From contig OZ244799.1 in assembly GCA_965219955.1 (NCBI GenBank), positions 608,001 through 672,000 of the forward strand: a stretch of 64,000 nucleotides of DNA, in the 5' to 3' direction. The notes under the pieces are model-generated. The model saw only the letters and a program-made list of their open reading frames with translations. It did no database searches and was not told the origin of the DNA. Positions 24,792 to 33,181 of this stretch are shown here, one piece after another; the first letter of the stretch is position 1, and each line of letters opens with the position of its first letter. The translations under genes and the position numbers were made by a program. This DNA is from a bacterium. GTDB taxonomy: Bacteria; UBA8248.

Positions 24792-24821
24792 AAGAGGGGA
24801 TGGTGGAATCACTGACCCCTG

Positions 24822-25333
24822 GGGGGGTGTTGAAAAAGCCTGTTTCGGGATCAGCGGCATGGAGGTTCATGCGGCGCAGACGCGATGGTTTTGTAGGGAC
24901 AGGCCTCCGTGCCTGTCCTGACGAAGGACAACCACGAAGAGCAGGACAGGCACGGAGGCCTGTCCCTACGGTGAACAATTCGATGATCGGGATGTCCTCT
25001 TCTCAAAGGGATGTTGAAAAAGCCCCGTGGAGCGATTTTGGTTGAACGCACGTTTTTGAAGTTCACTCCCCCCTTGAGGGGGAGTCGATGAAGCCGAGCG
25101 GTTTTTGCGAAGGCTGAATCGGTGGGGGGTAAAATGCGTTTTATTGCCAGTTCAAATTATACCCCCCACCGAATCGCTTTCGGGCTTACGCCCTCAGCTC
25201 TTCGACTCCCCCTCAAGGGGGGAGTGGTTGGTTGGCGCTCTGCAAGGGAGGAGTATAGTTTCATTCTTTTATGGTTAGCTCCATACGTGGAATCACGAAA
25301 TCATGGCTTTTTCAGCAACCCCCTCAAGGGGGA
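24822..25333. repeat. Composite REP/MITE mosaic between E1 alpha and beta
   Basis: Inverted copy of 11419-11566 plus a CCCCCTTGAGGGGG...CCCCCTCAAGGGGG element also found at 61310-61625. Confidence 0.85.
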
Positions 25334-25364
25334 ATGAGGAAAACCCAAGCAGGAGAGAAATGAG

Positions 25365-26345
25365 ATGCGAGAGATCACTTTTGTGGATGCGTTGACCGAA
25401 GCCCATCACGAGGAGATGGAGCGCGATGAGCGCGTGATCGTCATGGGCGAGGACGTGGAGCTTGCCTACGTCTTCGGCGTGACGAAGGGCCTCGCGGATA
25501 AATTCGGGCGCGACCGCGTGCGCGACACGCCCATCAGCGAACTCGGCATCGTGGGCGCGGGCGTGGGCGCCGCCATGGCGGGCTATAGGCCCATCGTCGA
25601 GATCATGTTCATGGACTTCATCATGCTGGCGATGGACCCGCTCATCAACCAGGCGGCCAAGCTGCGCTACATGCTGGGCGGGCAGTTGAGCGTGCCGCTC
25701 GTCGTGCGCACCCCCGGCGGCGGCGGCGTTCAGTACGGCCCCACGCACAGCCAGTGCCTCGAAGCCTGGTTCATGCAGATCCCGGGCATCAAGGTGGCCG
25801 CGCCGAGCGACCCCGCCGACGCCAAGGGCCTGATGTGCGCGGCGATTCGCGACGACAACCCCGTGCTCATGGTGGAGCACAAGATGCTCTACAAGATGAA
25901 GGGGCCCGTGCCCGAGGGCGAGCACGTCACCCCCTTCGGCCAGGCGGCCGTGAAGCGTGAAGGCTCGGATATCACTCTCATCGGCGTGGGCTATCAGGTG
26001 CACAATTGCCTGGCGGCGGCGGATGAACTCGCCGGGGAGGGCATCAGCGCCGAAGTGGTCGACCCCAGGACCCTGGCCCCGCTCGACACCGCGACGCTCG
26101 CCGAATCCGTCCGCAAGACGAACCGCTGCATCATCGTCGAGGAAGGGCATCTCAGAAGCGGCGTGGGTTCCGAAATATCCGCCGCCGTTCAGGAAGAGGC
26201 CTTCGACTACCTCGACGCCCCCATCGGCCGCGTGGCCGCCCTCGACGCGCCCATCCCCTTCGAGCCCCGCCTCGAGGATTTCGTGCTCCCCAACACCGCC
26301 AACGTCGTCGACGCCGCGAAAAAGGCGCTGGGGGTGAGTGTGTAG
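25365..26345 (+). CDS. TPP-dependent dehydrogenase E1 beta subunit
   Basis: GEDV, DTPISE, EIMFMDF, HSQ and DYLDAP motifs. Confidence 0.95.
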   Translation: MREITFVDALTEAHHEEMERDERVIVMGEDVELAYVFGVTKGLADKFGRDRVRDTPISELGIVGAGVGAAMAGYRPIVEIMFMDFIMLAMDPLINQAAKLRYMLGGQLSVPLVVRTPGGGGVQYGPTHSQCLEAWFMQIPGIKVAAPSDPADAKGLMCAAIRDDNPVLMVEHKMLYKMKGPVPEGEHVTPFGQAAVKREGSDITLIGVGYQVHNCLAAADELAGEGISAEVVDPRTLAPLDTATLAESVRKTNRCIIVEEGHLRSGVGSEISAAVQEEAFDYLDAPIGRVAALDAPIPFEPRLEDFVLPNTANVVDAAKKALGVSV

Positions 26346-26480
26346 GGTGATTCCGATTGATGAAGGAGAAATTGACGCGAGTGCGGAGCGAGTGTTTGCC
26401 GACCGATTCGAGAGGGTCTGGGGAACGTCGAATGTTCAGCTCACGAAGTCATGCCGCTTGAAGGTTGGTGAAAATAATAA

Positions 26481-26981
26481 ATGTTGACGAACGACGAGAT
26501 TCAAGGACTGATAACATCTCCAAAGAAGATTACGGATAAATCTCCCGCAAAATTCTACAGAGAGGTTGATGGCTCCCGACGTGGTTCTTTGACTTTGGAG
26601 AGCGTTAGCTCAGAAATAGAGCGGTTCTCCGTTTTTATCCGGCAAAACATCCGATTCATCGAGAACTATTCCATCGGCTTGCGTTATCAAATCAAAAACA
26701 AGGACTTGGGGTCCGTAACACTTATTCGCTACAATGGGCCGCATGGCGAGAGCAGCCGCGACGAAGACGGTCATTTTGGCAAACCGCATATCCACCGTAT
26801 AACGGCTGAAGAATTACAATCCGGCAGTCTTCAGCCACAGGAGAGTCATAGAGAAATTACGGATAGGTACAGCACGTTTGAAAATGCTCTTGTCGTTTTC
26901 TTCAAGGATGCGGGTATAACGAATTGGAAGGATTACTTTCCCGAGTTGAGCCAAGGGACTCTTTTCGATGGACATCGATAA
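26481..26981 (+). CDS. Hypothetical protein with RYNGPHG...PHIH motif (DUF6978-like)
   Basis: AT-rich ORF overlapping the next gene; His motif; ends in QGTLFDGHR. Confidence 0.65.
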   Translation: MLTNDEIQGLITSPKKITDKSPAKFYREVDGSRRGSLTLESVSSEIERFSVFIRQNIRFIENYSIGLRYQIKNKDLGSVTLIRYNGPHGESSRDEDGHFGKPHIHRITAEELQSGSLQPQESHREITDRYSTFENALVVFFKDAGITNWKDYFPELSQGTLFDGHR

Positions 26982-27735
26982 GGCAATCAGCCTACTCAAT
27001 GATAATGCCAAAACCGGTTTTGGTGTATATCAACGAAGGCAAGATAAATATCAACTCATCGTCCCCATACTCCATGAGGACGGCGATATGGTGGACGTGT
27101 ATTTGCAAGACAGCCCCAAAAGCGAAAACCATGTGCGCATCTGTGATTTCGGCATGGCGGTCATGCGACTTTCCTACACGTATGAAATCAACAGCCCGTC
27201 TCGACAGAAGATTTTCGACAGCATTTTGATCAACAACGGGGTTCAAAGCGAGGAAGGAAATCTTTATCTGGATACCACTCCCGAAATGCTTTACGAAAAC
27301 ATGCTGCAATTTGCGGGCTGTGTTCAGAAAGTATGCAACATGCGCTATTGGAGCAGGGAGATCGTCCGAAGCGCGTTTTACGACGATTTGAGAGATTACG
27401 CCACGACGGAATTGGCGCGGTTTCATCCGATGCCCGATGCGTGCCCGCTTCCGAATTACGAAATCATAAGTGTGGATTGGTCTCTCACGTACAAAGAACG
27501 TAGCCTTTATCTTTTTGGTATAGGGAGCAACGACAAGGCGAAAAATGTCGCCATTTCACTGCTGGAGTTTCAAAAAGCGAACTTGCCGTTTATCAGCCTG
27601 ATTGTCCATGAAGACATGGAGGAACTTGGAAGAAGGGAAAGGTTGTATCTAACTAAAAACGCGGATACACAATACCCGACACTAGGGGATTTTCAAGATA
27701 GAGCACTCTCGGATATTGAACGACTCGTGGCTTGA
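26968..27735 (+). CDS. DUF1828-like domain protein
   Basis: P...DGDMVDVYL...ICDFG motif typical of DUF1828; overlaps the upstream ORF by 14 nt. Confidence 0.7.
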   Translation: MDIDKAISLLNDNAKTGFGVYQRRQDKYQLIVPILHEDGDMVDVYLQDSPKSENHVRICDFGMAVMRLSYTYEINSPSRQKIFDSILINNGVQSEEGNLYLDTTPEMLYENMLQFAGCVQKVCNMRYWSREIVRSAFYDDLRDYATTELARFHPMPDACPLPNYEIISVDWSLTYKERSLYLFGIGSNDKAKNVAISLLEFQKANLPFISLIVHEDMEELGRRERLYLTKNADTQYPTLGDFQDRALSDIERLVA

Positions 27736-27869
27736 AGCGAGAGGTTAGAGCGGATTCAAGAATCACAGCCGGTCGGGTCTGCAGACTGTGTTAGCTGATG
27801 CCCCTTGAGTGATAACTGATGGGGTCATTGAATTCATTGCAAGGTGAGTGAAGTTTGGAGCCTGACAAC

Positions 27870-28643
27870 ATGGGAAAAAAGCAATGTTTTGTGATTCAGC
27901 CTTTTGATAAGGGTAAATTTGAAGAAAGATATGAAGATATTTTTTTTCCGGCCATAAAGGCGGCGCAAGCCGAACCGTATAGAGTTGATGAAGATGTCGC
28001 GGCCGAAAATCTCATTATTGCTATTGAAGAGGGTATCAGGAAAGCTGATGTGTGTTTTGCCGAAATAACCTCGCATAACAGAAATGTTTGGTATGAATTA
28101 GGCTATGCGATTGCTATTTTAAAGCCAGTAACAATGGTTTGCGAAGAGAGTTGTGAACTCCCATTTGATGTGAGAAGTCGCCGTGTCATCATGTATAAAG
28201 ATAAGGATGTTTCAAGTAGGCACTTTGAGCAGTTGAGAAGTGATATTACTCGTTCGATACAAGCTGCCTTGGAAAGAGCCATCAAAATCGAAAAGATTAC
28301 GGATCCTGTTTCTCCTTCCCTCAATCTTGATGAAATGCGGCAACATACTTTAACGGCTCTAGTGATAATAGCTTCCAATGCCGAGCGTGATGAAGGGGTG
28401 AGTTTATATTCTCTAAAACAAGATATGAATAATGCGGGGTTCAACGATTTGGCTACCAATCTCGCACTTAGAGAATTAGTTCAGAAACAATTCGTAACAA
28501 AACAGAATGAGGGATACGATAATCCTTTTGCTTCTTGTACAGAGAAAGCGATGGAATGGCTCTCCGCAAATCAGGACAATTTGAGCTTGAAAGAAGATAC
28601 TTCCCGTCGCGAAGAACTATCAGACGATGACATACCATTTTGA
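27870..28643 (+). CDS. Nucleoside 2-deoxyribosyltransferase/TIR-like domain plus putative wHTH, with DDDIPF tail
   Basis: CFVIQPF...RVD...ADVCFAEIT..NRNVWYELGYA...LPFDV motif set. Confidence 0.8.
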   Translation: MGKKQCFVIQPFDKGKFEERYEDIFFPAIKAAQAEPYRVDEDVAAENLIIAIEEGIRKADVCFAEITSHNRNVWYELGYAIAILKPVTMVCEESCELPFDVRSRRVIMYKDKDVSSRHFEQLRSDITRSIQAALERAIKIEKITDPVSPSLNLDEMRQHTLTALVIIASNAERDEGVSLYSLKQDMNNAGFNDLATNLALRELVQKQFVTKQNEGYDNPFASCTEKAMEWLSANQDNLSLKEDTSRREELSDDDIPF

Positions 28644-28715
28644 ATAGTAAGGGCAATCATAATGCTCGGTGAGTAGGCTCTAGTGCTCCGCTGATCGAGC
28701 GGGGAGAGGGGAAGC

Positions 28716-28820
28716 CTAGAGATTGACCTCGGCGTCGGGCGCGCCCGCCTTGAGCGCATTCATCCAGGTGAGGCACAACTCTCGCGAGCGGTAGTCGCCG
28801 TAAGCCTTGGTTTCTTTCCT
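28716..28820 (-). pseudogene. C-terminal remnant of a type IIG (Eco57I-like) restriction-modification enzyme
   Basis: Reads RKETKAYGDYRSRELCLTWMNALKAGAPDAEVNL*; no start, truncated at the REP cluster. Confidence 0.5.
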
Positions 28821-28832
28821 CGTCCCGAAAAG

Positions 28833-28970
28833 CAGGGCGGTTCACGAACCGCCCCTACAGAATGCCGGATGAAAGGGTTCCGGCATGACGGCAAAAACGG
28901 GCGGACACGGGGGTCCGCCCCTACGAGATCGCCCGATCTTTACAGCGGGCGGCTCTCGAGCCGCCCCTAC
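28833..28970. repeat. Cluster of three GTAG-family REP hairpins
   Basis: GGGCGG-N-CCGCCCCTAC occurs three times. Confidence 0.8.
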
Positions 28971-29126
28971 GGGAAGACCACCAACCGAACGAACGCGAAA
29001 AGACACCGGATTCCGCAGCTCCTCCTTCCTCAGTCGGGTCTGACACCGGAGTGACGAATAAAACGGCCCCAAACGCCCTTGCATCAGACCCGTTCGTGGA
29101 CGATATTCGGTCCATAGGAGGCGGCC

Positions 29127-29402
29127 ATGTCCCTTTCGAACCGGATAAAACCCATCAGCTACTTAAAGACGCACGCCGAGGAAATCGTCCGTACGCTCGG
29201 GGAGCGGGGGGAGCCGCTGGTGATCACCCAGAACGGGGAAGCCAAGGTGGTCATGCAGGACATCGACAGCTACGAGCGGATGCAGGAGACGCTCGCCCTG
29301 CTCAAGATTCTCGCCCTGGGCGACCGCCAGATTGAAGCCGGGCGGGCGCAACCCGCCGCCGAGGTGACGGCGCGGCTCCGGGAGCGGCTATCGGCCCGCT
29401 GA
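29127..29402 (+). CDS. Phd/YefM family antitoxin
   Basis: IKPISYLK...PLVITQNGEAKVV motif. Confidence 0.92.
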   Translation: MSLSNRIKPISYLKTHAEEIVRTLGERGEPLVITQNGEAKVVMQDIDSYERMQETLALLKILALGDRQIEAGRAQPAAEVTARLRERLSAR

Positions 29403-29497
29403 TGCTCTTCGCGGTCCATCTGAGCGAGGACGCGGTGCGCCCGGCGAACCCTCCCTCATCGCTCGGGTTCGACTCTTTGACTTATCCTCCGCCCTGA
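29402..29497 (+). pseudogene. Truncated RelE/ParE toxin (about 13 N-terminal codons)
   Basis: TGATG coupling to the antitoxin; MLFAVHLSEDAVR resembles a ParE N-terminus, then similarity stops. Confidence 0.6.
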
Positions 29498-29548
29498 GCG
29501 AAACTGGCTGTACCAGCTACTCCACGAGGACAGACCGGAGATAGCCGA

Positions 29549-29923
29549 ATGACCGAATACGAAACAGCAAACCTCGCCGTGCAACAAGACGCGCTCGCAC
29601 TGCAACAGGCCACATTTGCCCTTCAACAAGCATCGCTCGCTGTGCAACGAGCCGCCGTATGGGTCGCCGCGCTCGTCGGGGCCGCGCAGTGCAGCCTCAT
29701 CGGGGTTGGCCTCTACATCATGCGGCAGGCCTCGAAGCAGCGCGACGCCATGCACCAGGAAACCATGGAGGCGCTGAAGGTTCAACGAGAGGCGCAAAGC
29801 GAACAGCACCGGGAAACCATGAAGGCGCTGGAAGGCCAGAACAAGGCTCTGGAAAACCAGCGCGAGGCGATGATGGAACTCATCCGGCGGACGTCCGCGC
29901 CTTCCGCGCAAGGGGACGGTTGA
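29549..29923 (+). CDS. Small membrane/coiled-coil protein, dispersed homolog of the 16.5-17.8 kb family
   Basis: MTEYE...W...VG.AQC.LI..GL..M...HQETMEAL...HRETMKALE...LIRRTS pattern. Confidence 0.75.
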   Translation: MTEYETANLAVQQDALALQQATFALQQASLAVQRAAVWVAALVGAAQCSLIGVGLYIMRQASKQRDAMHQETMEALKVQREAQSEQHRETMKALEGQNKALENQREAMMELIRRTSAPSAQGDG

Positions 29924-30124
29924 GCGGTTCGGGGTCCAGGCTGAATTCCGCCCGCGTCTTCATTTCATGGGCCGCGCCGACTTTCTGAAACCCCGGCGGC
30001 GGCAGTCAGCCGCAGCCGGGCTTTCGCGCCTGCCCGCCGCGCCGGGTGTCTTTGCCGACCAGGCGGAGCCGGGTCTGCCGGCGCCCGGCCCGGTTCCCCG
30101 CCGCCGTCTCCACTGAGGCCGCCC

Positions 30125-31480
30125 GTGCTGGATATCCTCGCCGACCGCACCTACCGCCATCTATTCGCAGCGCAGGTCACGGCCCTCGCGGGCACGGGGC
30201 TCGCCACGATTGCGCTGGGCCTTCTCGCCTACGACCTCGCGGACGAGGATGCGGCGATGGTGCTGGGCGCCGTCTTCACCATCAAGATGGCGGCCTACGT
30301 CGGGGTCGCGCCCATCGCCGGCGCCTTCGCCGACAGGGTCCCGCGCCGGGCGCTGCTCGTCGCGCTCGACATCGTGCGCGCCGCCGCGGCCCTGGCGTTG
30401 CCCTTCGTGACGCAGATATGGCAGCTCTACCTCCTGATCTTCGTCCTGCAATCGGCTTCGGCGGCCTTCACCCCGACCTTCCAGGCGACGATTCCGGACG
30501 TGCTGCCCGAAGAATCCCGCTACACCCGCGCGCTGTCGCTCTCACGCCTCGCTTACGACCTCGAGAACATCTTCAGCCCGACCCTCGCGGCGCTGCTGCT
30601 GGCGATGATGTCCTACGACGCCCTGTTCCTCGGCACGGCGGCCGGCTTTCTCGCCTCGGCTCTGCTGGTGGTCTCGGTATTTCTGCCGAGCCCCGCGCCC
30701 AAGGTTCCGCGAAGCATCTACGAGCGCACGACCCGCGGTGTCCGCATCTATCTCGCCACGCCCCGGCTCCGCGGACTCCTGGCGCTCAATCTCGCCGCGG
30801 CGGCCGCGGGCGCGATGGTGCTGGTCAACACCGTCGTGCTCGTTCGGGGCGGGCTGGGGCTGGACGAGAGCGCCGTGGCATGGGCGATGGCCGCATTCGG
30901 TGGGGGTTCGATGCTGTCCGCGCTCGTCCTCCCGCGCCTGCTGGACCGGGCGCCGGAGCGGAAGGTGATGCTGACGGGCGCGGCGCTGATGATCGCGGGC
31001 CTGTGCGCGCTGGCCGCGCTCATCCCGGGCGCCGGTCTCTCCTGGCCCCTCCTGCTCGGCGCATGGGTCACGGTGGGGATCGGCTATTCCGGCATACTCA
31101 CGCCGTCGGGACGGCTTCTGCGGCGCTCCTCGAACCCCGAGGACCGGCCCGCGCTCTTCGCGGCGCAGTTCGCGCTCAGCCACGCCTGCTGGCTGATGAC
31201 CTATCCGCTCTCGGGCTGGCTGATGACCGCATTTGGCGCAATCGCCGCGCTCGCCGGGTTGAGCGCGCTGGCTCTCATCGGCGCGGCGCTCGCGCTGCGC
31301 CTGTGGCCGGACGCCGATCCGGTCGCGATAGCGCACCGTCACGACGACCTCCCTCCCGATCATCCGCACCTGCGCGGCGGGCGCGAACACGTTCATCCTT
31401 ACATGATCGATGACTTGCACAGGCGCTGGCCGCCGGCGGACCCGCGTTCATCCGATGAGCGCATCACGAACGGCTCCTGA
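30125..31480 (+). CDS. MFS transporter, NreB-like nickel efflux
   Basis: MFS with many TM helices and His-rich C-terminus HRHDDLPPDHPHL..HVH. Confidence 0.85.
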   Translation: MLDILADRTYRHLFAAQVTALAGTGLATIALGLLAYDLADEDAAMVLGAVFTIKMAAYVGVAPIAGAFADRVPRRALLVALDIVRAAAALALPFVTQIWQLYLLIFVLQSASAAFTPTFQATIPDVLPEESRYTRALSLSRLAYDLENIFSPTLAALLLAMMSYDALFLGTAAGFLASALLVVSVFLPSPAPKVPRSIYERTTRGVRIYLATPRLRGLLALNLAAAAAGAMVLVNTVVLVRGGLGLDESAVAWAMAAFGGGSMLSALVLPRLLDRAPERKVMLTGAALMIAGLCALAALIPGAGLSWPLLLGAWVTVGIGYSGILTPSGRLLRRSSNPEDRPALFAAQFALSHACWLMTYPLSGWLMTAFGAIAALAGLSALALIGAALALRLWPDADPVAIAHRHDDLPPDHPHLRGGREHVHPYMIDDLHRRWPPADPRSSDERITNGS

Positions 31481-31773
31481 ACCGGAAAGCAGCCTCCGGG
31501 CGGACACCTTCGATTTTCCTTTCCTCAGGGAAGTTTGACCCCGTAACGAAAAAGGCATTTCCCCTTCGCAGCGCAACACCGCATCACGCGGACCTCACAT
31601 CCGCCGGACGCTCCCCGGCGGCGCTTTACTTACGCGCCTGCGAATTTCCTTTGAAGCCGGTTTTTTGGCTGATACAATCGGCTGCATCGTCCCGTATGTC
31701 CCGGCATGTTATCGAAATAACCTGCGCCCATGTTCGTCGGCGCCGGAGACCTCTAGCTTTTGGGAGTCGAAAC

Positions 31774-32595
31774 TTGAGAAATGACGCGGCGAAAAAGTTT
31801 ACGCCGGCCCTTTGCGTGTTCTTCCTGTTCGCCTGGCTTCCGTTCGCCGAAGCCGGCGAAGGAAGCGATTGGGATATCCGTATCGGCATGGGCGCAAGAT
31901 ACGATGCGAAGTATGAAGGTTCCGACGAGATGAAGACGCGGGTTCTTCCTCTGATAGACATCACCTGGAAAGACCTGGTTTTTCTCAATCCGCGCGAGGG
32001 TTTGGGCGTGCACGTTTTCGCCGAGCACAACCTCACGGTCAGCGTCGGGGTGGGATACGTGTTCGGCAGGGATGAATCGGACAGCAGCGGCCTCAGGGGT
32101 ATGGGCGATATCGATGACGCCGCTGCCGCCAACCTCAAAATAAAATACGCCATCGGACCGGTTACGCCCTTCATCGGCGCTTCCAGACATTTGGGAGATA
32201 TCGACGGGACTTTGGTGGAGGTAGGAGTCGGGGGCATCGTGCCGCTGGCTCTGATGACCGGAGGGATGAATTCGCCAGGCATGGGCGCCGGCGGGCTGAA
32301 AGGACCGGCGCTGCAACTCGGCGTATCCGCAACCTGGGCTGACGGCGACTACATGGAAGGCTACTTCGGCGTGAATCCGGTACAGTCCGCCGCCTCGGGC
32401 TACGCCCGATACGATGCGGAATCCGGATTCAAATCGGTGGACTTCAAGTTCGGCGTCATCTATCCATTTGCGGAAAACTGGGCGGTGAACGCCCGGGGCG
32501 GGTACTCACGATTGCTGGGCGATGCCGCCGACAGTCCAATCGTCAGGGACGATGGCCGCTTTTCCGGCGGTTTGTTTCTGTCTTACCGTTTCTGA
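31774..32595 (+). CDS. MipA/OmpV family outer-membrane protein
   Basis: YEGSD, YM..YFGV and GDAADSPIV motifs, terminal YRF. Start is uncertain (TTG after GGAG). Confidence 0.85.
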   Translation: MRNDAAKKFTPALCVFFLFAWLPFAEAGEGSDWDIRIGMGARYDAKYEGSDEMKTRVLPLIDITWKDLVFLNPREGLGVHVFAEHNLTVSVGVGYVFGRDESDSSGLRGMGDIDDAAAANLKIKYAIGPVTPFIGASRHLGDIDGTLVEVGVGGIVPLALMTGGMNSPGMGAGGLKGPALQLGVSATWADGDYMEGYFGVNPVQSAASGYARYDAESGFKSVDFKFGVIYPFAENWAVNARGGYSRLLGDAADSPIVRDDGRFSGGLFLSYRF

Positions 32596-33181
32596 TTCAT
32601 CGGGTCAATTTTTGAATCGAAGAGCAGCTATTCCACCCTGATGGGTCGGAAGCGTGTGCGTATCTGCTTCATACTTCAGCGCGCGTGGAAACCGGGGGCC
32701 GGCATCCGGAGGCGGCGACGATGATGGGTATCTGAAGGATAATGAGAAAAGACCCGGCCCGACGCATCGAGATGTTCGGCAAAGGACCCGAAAAAACAAA
32801 GCCGCATTTCCCCGCAGTTGCGGTTGCCGGGTTTTCGTGCGCGTGAGGGAAAATCGCGCGCGGGAAAGAAATCGTTCCCGGCAGCTGGAGGAGGGGAGAA
32901 AATGGAGAAGGTGATTCGGCTTGAGGGGCGCGGTCGGCGACCCGCGGATCGGAAAACGCAGTCTTCCCCTCCCCGGGAAAGCCTGACTCTCCCCGGTCGG
33001 AATGGAGTGAGAAAAAATCGATAAAAAGGCTGAAACAATTCGATAAAATAAGATAAATTCACGGGGTTTTTCTGTAAATTTCCGAAAATTAAATGCGGCG
33101 ATATGCCATAATTGCGCCTGAAAAACGATGGGAAGAGGGGGGCGTACGCTCCCGAACCGATGGCGCAAAAGGAGGCGCGAG

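Follow-up and report, generated by a model that had tools for sequence, protein, structure and literature searches.

A mobile two-gene module, very probably of the PDC-M24 type, with a conserved clamp-motif-like tail on its small protein

Results

An overlapping low-GC gene pair behind an E1 beta gene

We studied two overlapping open reading frames (ORFs) in a 64,000-nt stretch of a bacterial genome (GTDB lineage Bacteria; UBA8248; GenBank assembly GCA_965219955.1, contig OZ244799.1, positions 608,001 to 672,000 of the forward strand; hereafter, the window). ORF1 (gene A) and ORF2 (gene B) very probably form a pair of the type catalogued in PADLOC as the phage defence candidate (PDC) PDC-M24, and the product of ORF1 ends in a short peptide that resembles bacterial beta-clamp-binding motifs.

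In the ORF list of the window, ORF1 runs from 26481 to 26981 (+ strand, 166 amino acids (aa)) and ORF2 from 26968 to 27735 (+ strand, 255 aa), both from an ATG. They overlap by 14 nt, the ATG of ORF2 lying within the final codons of ORF1. ORF1 contains RYNGPHGESSRDEDGHFGKPHIHR, and its C-terminus reads ELSQGTLFDGHR. The guanine-plus-cytosine (GC) content over 26400-27800 is 0.46-0.48, compared with 0.65-0.67 in the gene immediately upstream (25365-26345), a transketolase-type E1 beta gene as judged by its translation and by its orthologue in the sister genome L001, which matches Transket_pyr and Transketolase_C. A prediction made earlier from the sequence alone (hereafter, the original prediction) had described two overlapping low-GC ORFs after E1 beta and quoted their motifs, and coordinates, GC content and sequence all agree with that description. 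Since ORF1 and ORF2 have 337 and 981 relatives, respectively, at E ≤ 0.001, we regard both as real genes. The host genome carries a single copy of the pair. Its features, with the basis of each in brackets, are as follows.

26481-26981, + strand: gene A, DUF6978-like, small subunit of the probable PDC-M24-type pair, a beta-sheet domain with a short flexible C-terminal tail (ORF, profiles, AlphaFold2)
26727-26798, + strand: His cluster R83-Y-N-G-P-H88-G-E...D96-G-H98...H103-I-H105-R106, a candidate metal-binding or catalytic site (homologue alignments)
26952-26966, + strand: codons for Q158-G-T-L-F162, beta-clamp-binding-motif-like, four residues from the C-terminus (sequence, tail counts)
26953-26981, + strand: translational-coupling junction, with a Shine-Dalgarno (SD)-like AAGGGA in the Q-G codons of ORF1, the ORF2 ATG at 26968 and the ORF1 stop at 26979-26981 (sequence)
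26968-27735, + strand: gene B, with a DUF1828 N-domain (residues ~1-130) and a DUF1829-like C-terminal half (~150-255) (Pfam, PADLOC, structure search)

Similarity to the phage defence candidate PDC-M24

ORF2 matched Pfam DUF1828 at E 1.1e-15 (58.1 bits, cut-off 22), and this domain was detected in all 42 aligned members of the ORF2 family. It also matched PADLOC PDC-M24B at E 2.7e-16, a second PDC-M24B model at 1.9e-7, and phrog_5059 at E 7.6e-20. Pfam DUF1829 was found at E ≤ 0.1 in none of the 42 family members. An Atlas feature search with ORF2 residues 135-255 gave nearest named clusters with DUF1829 in 10-14% of their members (13% at score 0.94), and one weaker match was a cluster with DUF1829 in 89% of its members.

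ORF1 matched phrog_27326 at E 3e-18 and PDC-M24A at E 0.031, with no other PADLOC model at E ≤ 1; the PHROG families matched by the two ORFs are both of unknown function. Many close homologues of ORF1 carry a precomputed PF22398 match. The Atlas search with ORF1 yielded its own family alone, and the nearest named clusters have PF22398 in 25% of their members. Neither ORF had a match in NCBIfam.

The pair in the window shares the architecture of PDC-M24, a small DUF6978-like protein followed by a ~255-aa protein containing DUF1828, adjacent and on the same strand, and like PDC-M24 the pair is often embedded in restriction-modification operons. It differs in that its A protein reaches the A profile at E 0.031 only, from which we take the window's clade to be a divergent branch of PDC-M24. 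We thus have high confidence in assigning ORF1 and ORF2 to a PDC-M24-type pair. As genome annotation the window's copy is ordinary, a further member of a catalogued candidate. PDC-M24 itself is one of 145 phage defence candidates in PADLOC that were predicted by guilt by embedding and added untested (Payne, Hughes, Fineran & Jackson 2024, bioRxiv 10.1101/2024.01.29.577857). In the literature searched, DUF1828 and DUF6978 occur merely as annotations in unrelated work.

Obligate pairing and horizontal mobility

A pattern scan of one genome per species gave 116 relatives of ORF1, the best 80 of which were kept as loci; 72 of these have full flanks. An ORF2 homologue lies directly downstream of the ORF1 homologue in 80/80 loci, mostly overlapping it, and in related loci the ORF2 start falls within or beside the last ORF1 codons. 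The original prediction had called the genes an uncharacterised toxin-antitoxin or defence pair. The pair is indeed obligate, and the defence side of the claim has gained a match, PDC-M24, that is itself an untested candidate; toxin-antitoxin behaviour, like the 'replisome surveillance' also proposed, is an inference.

The GC content of the pair is below that of its flanks in all 72 full-flank loci, by more than 0.05 in 60 of them. Its hosts include Chloroflexota (Dehalococcoidia, Caldilineaceae), Latescibacterota, Binatia, Limisphaerales, Spirochaetia, Nitrospinales, Gammaproteobacteria and others, and protein identity across these hosts is still 50-68%. Among 60 relatives of the host genome the pair was present in five, including 4/22 of the same genus and 0/14 of other genera of the family. 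When 1.84 billion cluster representatives were searched with a profile of protein A, 886 matched at E ≤ 0.001; none of the plasmid records matched protein A. The low GC relative to the flanks, the wide host range at 50-68% identity and the patchy presence in relatives together indicate a mobile accessory cassette, and the pair is a horizontally mobile, translationally coupled two-gene module.

At the window's own position the pair is older than the split from L001. The flanking housekeeping genes of this sister genome are 85-92% identical to the window at the DNA level, and the block comprising E1 beta and the pair (25352-27763) is 87% identical, so the pair was already behind E1 beta in the common ancestor. 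In six loci (L007, L016, L062, L065, L071, L079), ORF1 is shortened to 27-134 aa by stops or frameshifts and ORF2 is still detected; either gene A is decaying there or these long-read metagenome genomes contain assembly errors.

The C-terminal tail of protein A

The original prediction had pointed to the QxxLF form of the beta-clamp-binding motif near the end of ORF1. A bacterial clamp-binding consensus of QL(S/D)LF at C-termini is described in PMC9690074. When the query is compared with its 120 closest homologues, Q158 is conserved in 113/121 sequences, L161 in 102/121 and F162 in 102/121, and the two middle residues vary. When the 80 loci and the window were considered together, 64 of the 81 tails carried Q..[LFIMV][FLYW]; of the 17 exceptions, six are the shortened ORFs and others are near-variants such as QMSLSL, QPRLI and QARMRLF. 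Within the 64 motif tails, Q is encoded by CAA (37) or CAG (27), F by TTC (44) or TTT (13), and position 4 by nine codons, six of them for Leu. This variation among synonymous codons for Q, L and F indicates that selection acts on the peptide.

A more distant set was drawn from the best 150 of the 886 profile matches, 124 of which are at least 150 aa long, with a median identity to the query of 37%. Their last 25 residues were scanned for a pentapeptide Q..[LMIVF][FLWYM] or a hexapeptide Q[LMIV].[LMIF].[LF] (loose forms), and for QLxL[FL] or QLxLx[LF] (strict forms). The loose motif occurs in 74/124 tails, against 14.1 in shuffled tails and 11 of 288 neighbouring ORFs, and the strict motif in 37/124, against 2.6 in shuffled tails, 3/288 neighbouring ORFs and 0/120 ORF2 homologues; the enrichment over shuffled tails is thus ~5-fold and ~14-fold, respectively. 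The loose pattern was also matched by 35/120 ORF2 homologues, which we believe to be one shared internal QYPxL-type segment among close relatives. Instances in the distant set include QLSLF, QLNLF, QLPLF, QLELF, QLKLDF, QLTIDL and QLSLL. In 68 of the 74 motif-bearing tails the motif ends at most 8 residues from the C-terminus, and the residues after it are rich in acids (36% D+E, compared with 14% overall). The tail of the phage copy described below, unalignable to that of the window, ends DEIDEPQLDLDLK. Tails of the PIP-box type (Qxx[ILMV]xx[FYWH][FYWLI]) were absent from the distant set, the four regular-expression matches lying in the structural YFP segment. Conservation of QxxLF was the point on which the original prediction had staked its clamp idea, and the motif is kept in both the close and the distant set, so the idea is not refuted on that ground; the tail counts strengthen it considerably.

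In the AlphaFold2 model of A, residues 160-166 have a predicted local distance difference test (pLDDT) score below 50, compared with a mean of 86.7, so the clamp-motif-like tail of this family sits on a poorly ordered end. Modelling with DnaN had been proposed along with the motif. When A was folded with the DnaN of its own host genome (L081), the complex scored 0.51 (runs 0.52, 0.51 and 0.48), and the best of three controls scored 0.05; contact agreement among the runs was at least 85% and partner pLDDT at least 76, with no interface reported. In calibration the passing mark was reached by 116/157 solved complexes and 2/215 mismatched pairs, and the passes scoring ≤ 0.60 comprised 18 of the 157 solved complexes and both of the mismatches. 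The modelling thus lent weak support without supplying an interface. Because structures of clamp-peptide complexes exist, mere resemblance to them may account for the pass. On balance, we lean slightly towards the view that the tail of A binds DnaN.

The alternative that most directly concerns the tail is that the pair is a defence or exclusion module whose tail is not a clamp ligand, acting instead as a hydrophobic anchor for B or for self-association, as a degradation tag, or arising partly as a by-product of the gene overlap. An SD-like 4-mer lies within the Q-x-x codons of 51/64 motif-bearing tails, so that the two variable motif positions encode it, and the motif follows the last conserved structural segment (Y152-F153-P154) by about four residues. 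B has a peptide-binding chaperone-like fold (see below), 50 of the distant members lack a recognisable motif, and the DnaN fold is only weakly supportive. Ribosome-site constraints, however, do not explain conserved Q, L and F with varying synonymous codons. Canonical QL[SNDPEKT]LF and QLxLx[LF] peptides, moreover, recur in unalignable tails, including that of the phage copy with its different junction, at the enrichments given above. We regard this alternative as rather unlikely.

Two further proteins of the host genome contain motifs of this kind. A DinB-like polymerase has QPLLF ~40 residues before its C-terminus, and an ImuB/DinB-like paralogue has QLELSL (the two genes lie at L084 1423-2661 / L085 1468-2706). 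Judged by their sequences, these are likely the host's own clamp-binding motifs.

Genomic neighbourhoods and phage copies

To describe the surroundings, ORFs around the 72 full-flank loci were called crudely as the longest non-overlapping ORFs. The two downstream ORFs of each locus were scanned (144 proteins), and upstream the scan covered the nearest ORF per locus and three second-nearest ones (75 of 144; the remaining 69 second-upstream ORFs were left out). Restriction-modification or known defence genes were found among these neighbours in 26/72 loci. Five loci (L008, L050, L051, L054, L071) have the order hsdM-pair-hsdS, and the others have N6/N4 methylases, MmeI/Eco57I-type or Type ISP enzymes, AAA_15/AAA_21 ATPases or ThsB-like TIR proteins. 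In the remaining 46 loci the neighbours are metabolic or of unknown function, as in the window. Transposases were neighbours in just 2/72 loci (L040, L055).

In five Dehalococcoidia loci (L006, L013, L022, L048, L055), the pair directly follows the gene for the large subunit of a molybdopterin-dependent dehydrogenase, with a small helix-turn-helix gene in between in L048, and a pantoate ligase gene follows the pair in L006, L022 and L048. These loci are a second case of the pair fixed in a housekeeping context.

The pair also occurs in three Pseudomonas phages, at 36% (A) and 29% (B) identity to the proteins of the window. In Pseudomonas phage 5371 the gene order is the same, with a 4-nt overlap; cI precedes the pair on the same strand, and cro is divergent. 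Restriction-modification and prophage-immunity contexts are frequent for this family. The lambda rexAB genes are lysogen-expressed exclusion genes situated behind the phage repressor. The pair of phage 5371 occupies the corresponding position behind cI, whereas that of the window is chromosomal and follows a metabolic gene. Overall, we consider a defence or exclusion role for the pair fairly likely.

The same data bear on the idea that the pair is a mobile-element or prophage accessory that uses the clamp for the replication, maintenance or targeting of its element, as do Tn7 TnsE and some insertion sequence (IS) transposases. Clamp use by transposon proteins is documented (PMC9690074), and the pair is mobile, patchily distributed and present in temperate phages and PHROG families. 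Most loci, however, hold the pair alone, with no recombinase or replication genes, and transposases are as rare as stated above; places such as the gap between hsdM and hsdS, or the position following cI, are where defence or exclusion cargo is typically found. This idea appears quite improbable.

Predicted folds and candidate chemistry of A and B

The model of A (pLDDT 86.7, predicted template modelling score 0.84) combines a beta-meander sheet with helices. In 41 close homologues R83, Y84, N85, G86, H88, G89, E90, D96, H98 and H103 are invariant. In 126 diverse sequences (median identity 37%) the counts are 124 for K15, 119 for R54, 125 for R83, 125 for N85, 121 for H88, 125 for H103 and 124 for H105. 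This polar cluster looks like a metal or active site, as far as the alignments can tell; the loop spanning residues 86-102 is of low confidence in the model (block mean pLDDT 54). Readings of the His cluster as HIT-like HxHxH, as a 2H phosphoesterase or as an HNH/His-Me finger were unsupported by the fold searches (Foldseek, VIA-align). A search of PDB sequences gave nothing at E ≤ 1 for the A profile and chance-level matches for the B profile (best E 0.047).

The model of B is poor (pLDDT 62.6 overall, roughly 76-87 over residues 41-120). For residues 1-130, VIA-align gave 3cxj_A at Z 10.4 (root-mean-square deviation 2.8, 116 aligned), Spa15 at Z 9.7, SycN-YscB at Z 9.4 and AmyR at Z 7.0, and the top 20 rows (Z 10.4-6.4) all have the type III secretion chaperone / YbjN fold. 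The DUF1828 domain of B thus resembles class I type III secretion chaperones and YbjN in structure. It differs from them in sequence (6-15% identity to the B N-domain), and the pair has no secretion-system context; a shared chaperone fold does not show a shared function. Residues 150-220 gave PspGI at Z 5.9, NucS at Z 5.1, BglII at Z 4.8 and OkrAI at Z 4.7, all from a low-confidence model and in the noise range. The C-terminal half may possibly have a restriction-endonuclease-like fold. D170 and K190 of B are invariant in close homologues.

These predictions bear on a close rival of the reading developed in the Discussion, namely a toxin-antitoxin system like those of SocB and RipA, in which A would poison replication by occupying the clamp pocket and B would keep A, or its tail, from acting until it is freed by infection or by loss of the element. 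SocB, the toxin of SocAB in Caulobacter (PMC9690074), and RipA, the toxin of a Rosmer-type toxin-antitoxin system in Streptococcus pneumoniae (PMC12795458), both act on the DnaN pocket (PMC9690074, PMC12795458). Like them, A is a small protein of a two-gene module that would act on this hydrophobic pocket; the differences are the conserved His cluster of A and the size of B, which far exceeds that of typical antitoxins. The tail evidence serves such a clamp poison as well as it serves a docked defence protein. The N-domain of B resembles chaperones that grip extended peptides, the genes overlap and are translationally coupled, and ORF1 is shortened in 6/80 loci with ORF2 still detectable, where frameshift errors in long-read metagenomes are possible. 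Pocket occupancy alone, however, leaves unexplained both the nearly invariant His/Arg/Asn cluster of A and the conserved 100-residue C-terminal domain of B. Moreover, A matches neither Rosmer, a phage-defence family, nor any other PADLOC toxin model at E ≤ 1. We judge the SocB/RipA-like scheme unlikely, though it is a close rival.

The variable slot and the third gene

The DNA homology with L001 ends at 27763, right after ORF2, and is back at 33023. The intervening ~5 kb downstream of the pair is a variable slot (window 27764-33022; L001 7284-10403). In the window it contains the following.

27870-28643, + strand: a third gene, 257 aa, TIR/nucleoside-deoxyribosyltransferase (NDT)-like, with the C-terminus SDDDIPF; the likely start is ATG 27870, as in record P0393, and not TTG 27855
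28830-28975: a cluster of palindromic or repeated elements
29127-29402, + strand: a Phd/YefM-family antitoxin gene (Pfam E 2.8e-18)
29549-29923, + strand: an ORF of 124 aa, with weak holin-like matches

The slot, which in the window includes a small membrane-like ORF, is probably a small defence or toxin-antitoxin hotspot. No recognisable toxin lies directly downstream of the Phd/YefM gene, the next ORF on the + strand being the one with holin-like matches. A second cluster of repeats lies at 24800-25350, between the E1 alpha and E1 beta genes. Examples from these clusters are 28-nt perfect inverted arms at 24893-24969, CCCCCTCAAGGGGG repeats and GGGCGG...CCGCCCCTAC units. The block at 24800-25350 is absent at that place in L001, where 70 nt of it find a match at another position. 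Both clusters look like repetitive extragenic palindromic (REP)- or miniature inverted-repeat transposable element (MITE)-like elements.

The third gene reached the PADLOC TIR effector profile at E 5.4e-7 and a Pfam profile at E 7.1e-6 (below cut-off), and its own family comprises 1596 relatives at E ≤ 0.001. Among the 120 matches listed for this family, 113 end in PF and 90 end in an acidic run followed by [ILVM]PF, chiefly DDDIPF or DDDLPF. We take this ending to resemble the C-terminal tip of SSB; from its sequence, the gene may encode a TIR-like defence protein that carries a mimic of the SSB tail. Among the papers listed in a literature search, none joined DDDIPF with anti-phage, TIR or deoxyribosyltransferase terms.

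The original prediction had united A, B and this gene in a three-gene islet for replisome surveillance or replisome mimicry, carrying two different replisome-interaction motifs. The three genes do lie within one low-GC stretch, and each terminal motif is conserved in its own family, so the two endings stand. Their union in one islet is not supported. A relative of the third gene was found near the pair in 3/80 loci (adjacent in L001, close in L053 and L024). Those in L001 (33% identical) and L053 (40%) lack the DDDIPF ending, and the L001 homology stops between ORF2 and the third gene. The DDDIPF-type ending, being conserved in its own large family, is thus a feature in its own right, on a gene distinct from the pair. 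The three-gene reading is largely refuted by the co-occurrence count and is, in our view, very improbable. Around the islet, the search for att-like direct repeats or tRNA-like borders gave just short chance repeats and palindromic repeat elements, and a scan for promoters and terminators gave counts at the level of shuffled sequence (4 vs 3.2; 5 vs 3.2).

Discussion

The reading that we favour, tentatively, is a PDC-M24-type module in which A is docked to DnaN by its tail and acts against an invading replicon. The flexible C-terminal Qxx[LM]F tail of A would dock in the peptide-binding pocket of DnaN and so bring an A-B complex to replicating DNA that is loaded with the clamp. In that position the module would detect or attack the replicon of an invading phage or plasmid, or stall replication and thereby abort the infection. 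The effector could be the conserved His cluster of A or the C-terminal domain of B, and the chaperone-like N-domain of B may serve as sensor or regulator. A more specific version, in which PDC-M24 is a sliding-clamp-docked immune module that patrols replicating DNA, or monitors phage competition for the clamp pocket, and fires its effector there, is doubtful in our estimate. In common with known clients of the beta clamp, A ends in a flexible segment whose short Q-x-x-[LM]-F or QLxLx[LF] peptide, at or near the C-terminus, is conserved across divergent homologues; QGTLF of the window differs from the strict consensus in having no Leu at position 2.

Several observations weigh against the favoured reading. 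Concerning identity, ORF1 matched Pfam DUF6978 at E 1.4e-5 with 25.9 bits, under the cut-off of 29.6, and its PDC-M24A match is the faint one reported above. The source preprint terms the 145 PDCs candidates only, and in the available part of its main text PDC-M24, DUF1828 and 'clamp' have 0 occurrences each (bioRxiv 10.1101/2024.01.29.577857). The literature searched yielded no mention, activity or test of PDC-M24. No restriction-modification or defence gene was recognised among the scanned neighbours in 46/72 loci, nor in the window. Concerning the tail, the window motif QGTLF fits the loose Qxx[LM]F form only, and a recognisable motif is missing in 50/124 distant representatives. Conserved YFP residues immediately precede the motif, which also overlaps the region where ribosomes bind for gene B, so part of its conservation may have other causes. 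The A-DnaN score falls in a weak band in which passes are 'more often wrong than right unless the guess was likely beforehand'. Concerning the effector, A has no informative structural relative in the model-based searches, with 0 Foldseek matches to the PDB at E ≤ 0.001 and a best VIA-align Z of 7.0 (DUF3836, 4r03_A) and none ≥ 8 among 48,161 chains, although novelty of the fold does not follow from this. The structural matches of the C-terminal half of B are at noise level, and a canonical PD-(D/E)xK signature was not evident by inspection of its homologue sequences.

PDC-M24 is widespread, with at least 886 protein A cluster representatives, in many phyla, in phages and in restriction-modification operons. 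'Clamp-binding motif' joined with anti-phage or defence terms was not found among the papers listed, nor was a family-wide clamp-type tail of PDC-M24 protein A in the literature searched, which is thus apparently unreported. The conserved clamp-motif-like tail provides a concrete, specific and easily testable mechanistic hypothesis for this family. If it is true, a defence candidate would be linked to the replisome hub in the way that SocB and RipA link toxins to it, and PDC-M24 would be, within the literature searched, the first defence family with a family-wide clamp-binding motif recognised. Searches for short linear hub motifs could then predict the sites of action of uncharacterised defence proteins. 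Taken together with the unrelated TIR/NDT-like family and its candidate SSB-tip mimic, this would point to hub motifs of the replisome as an addressing code that recurs in bacterial immunity.

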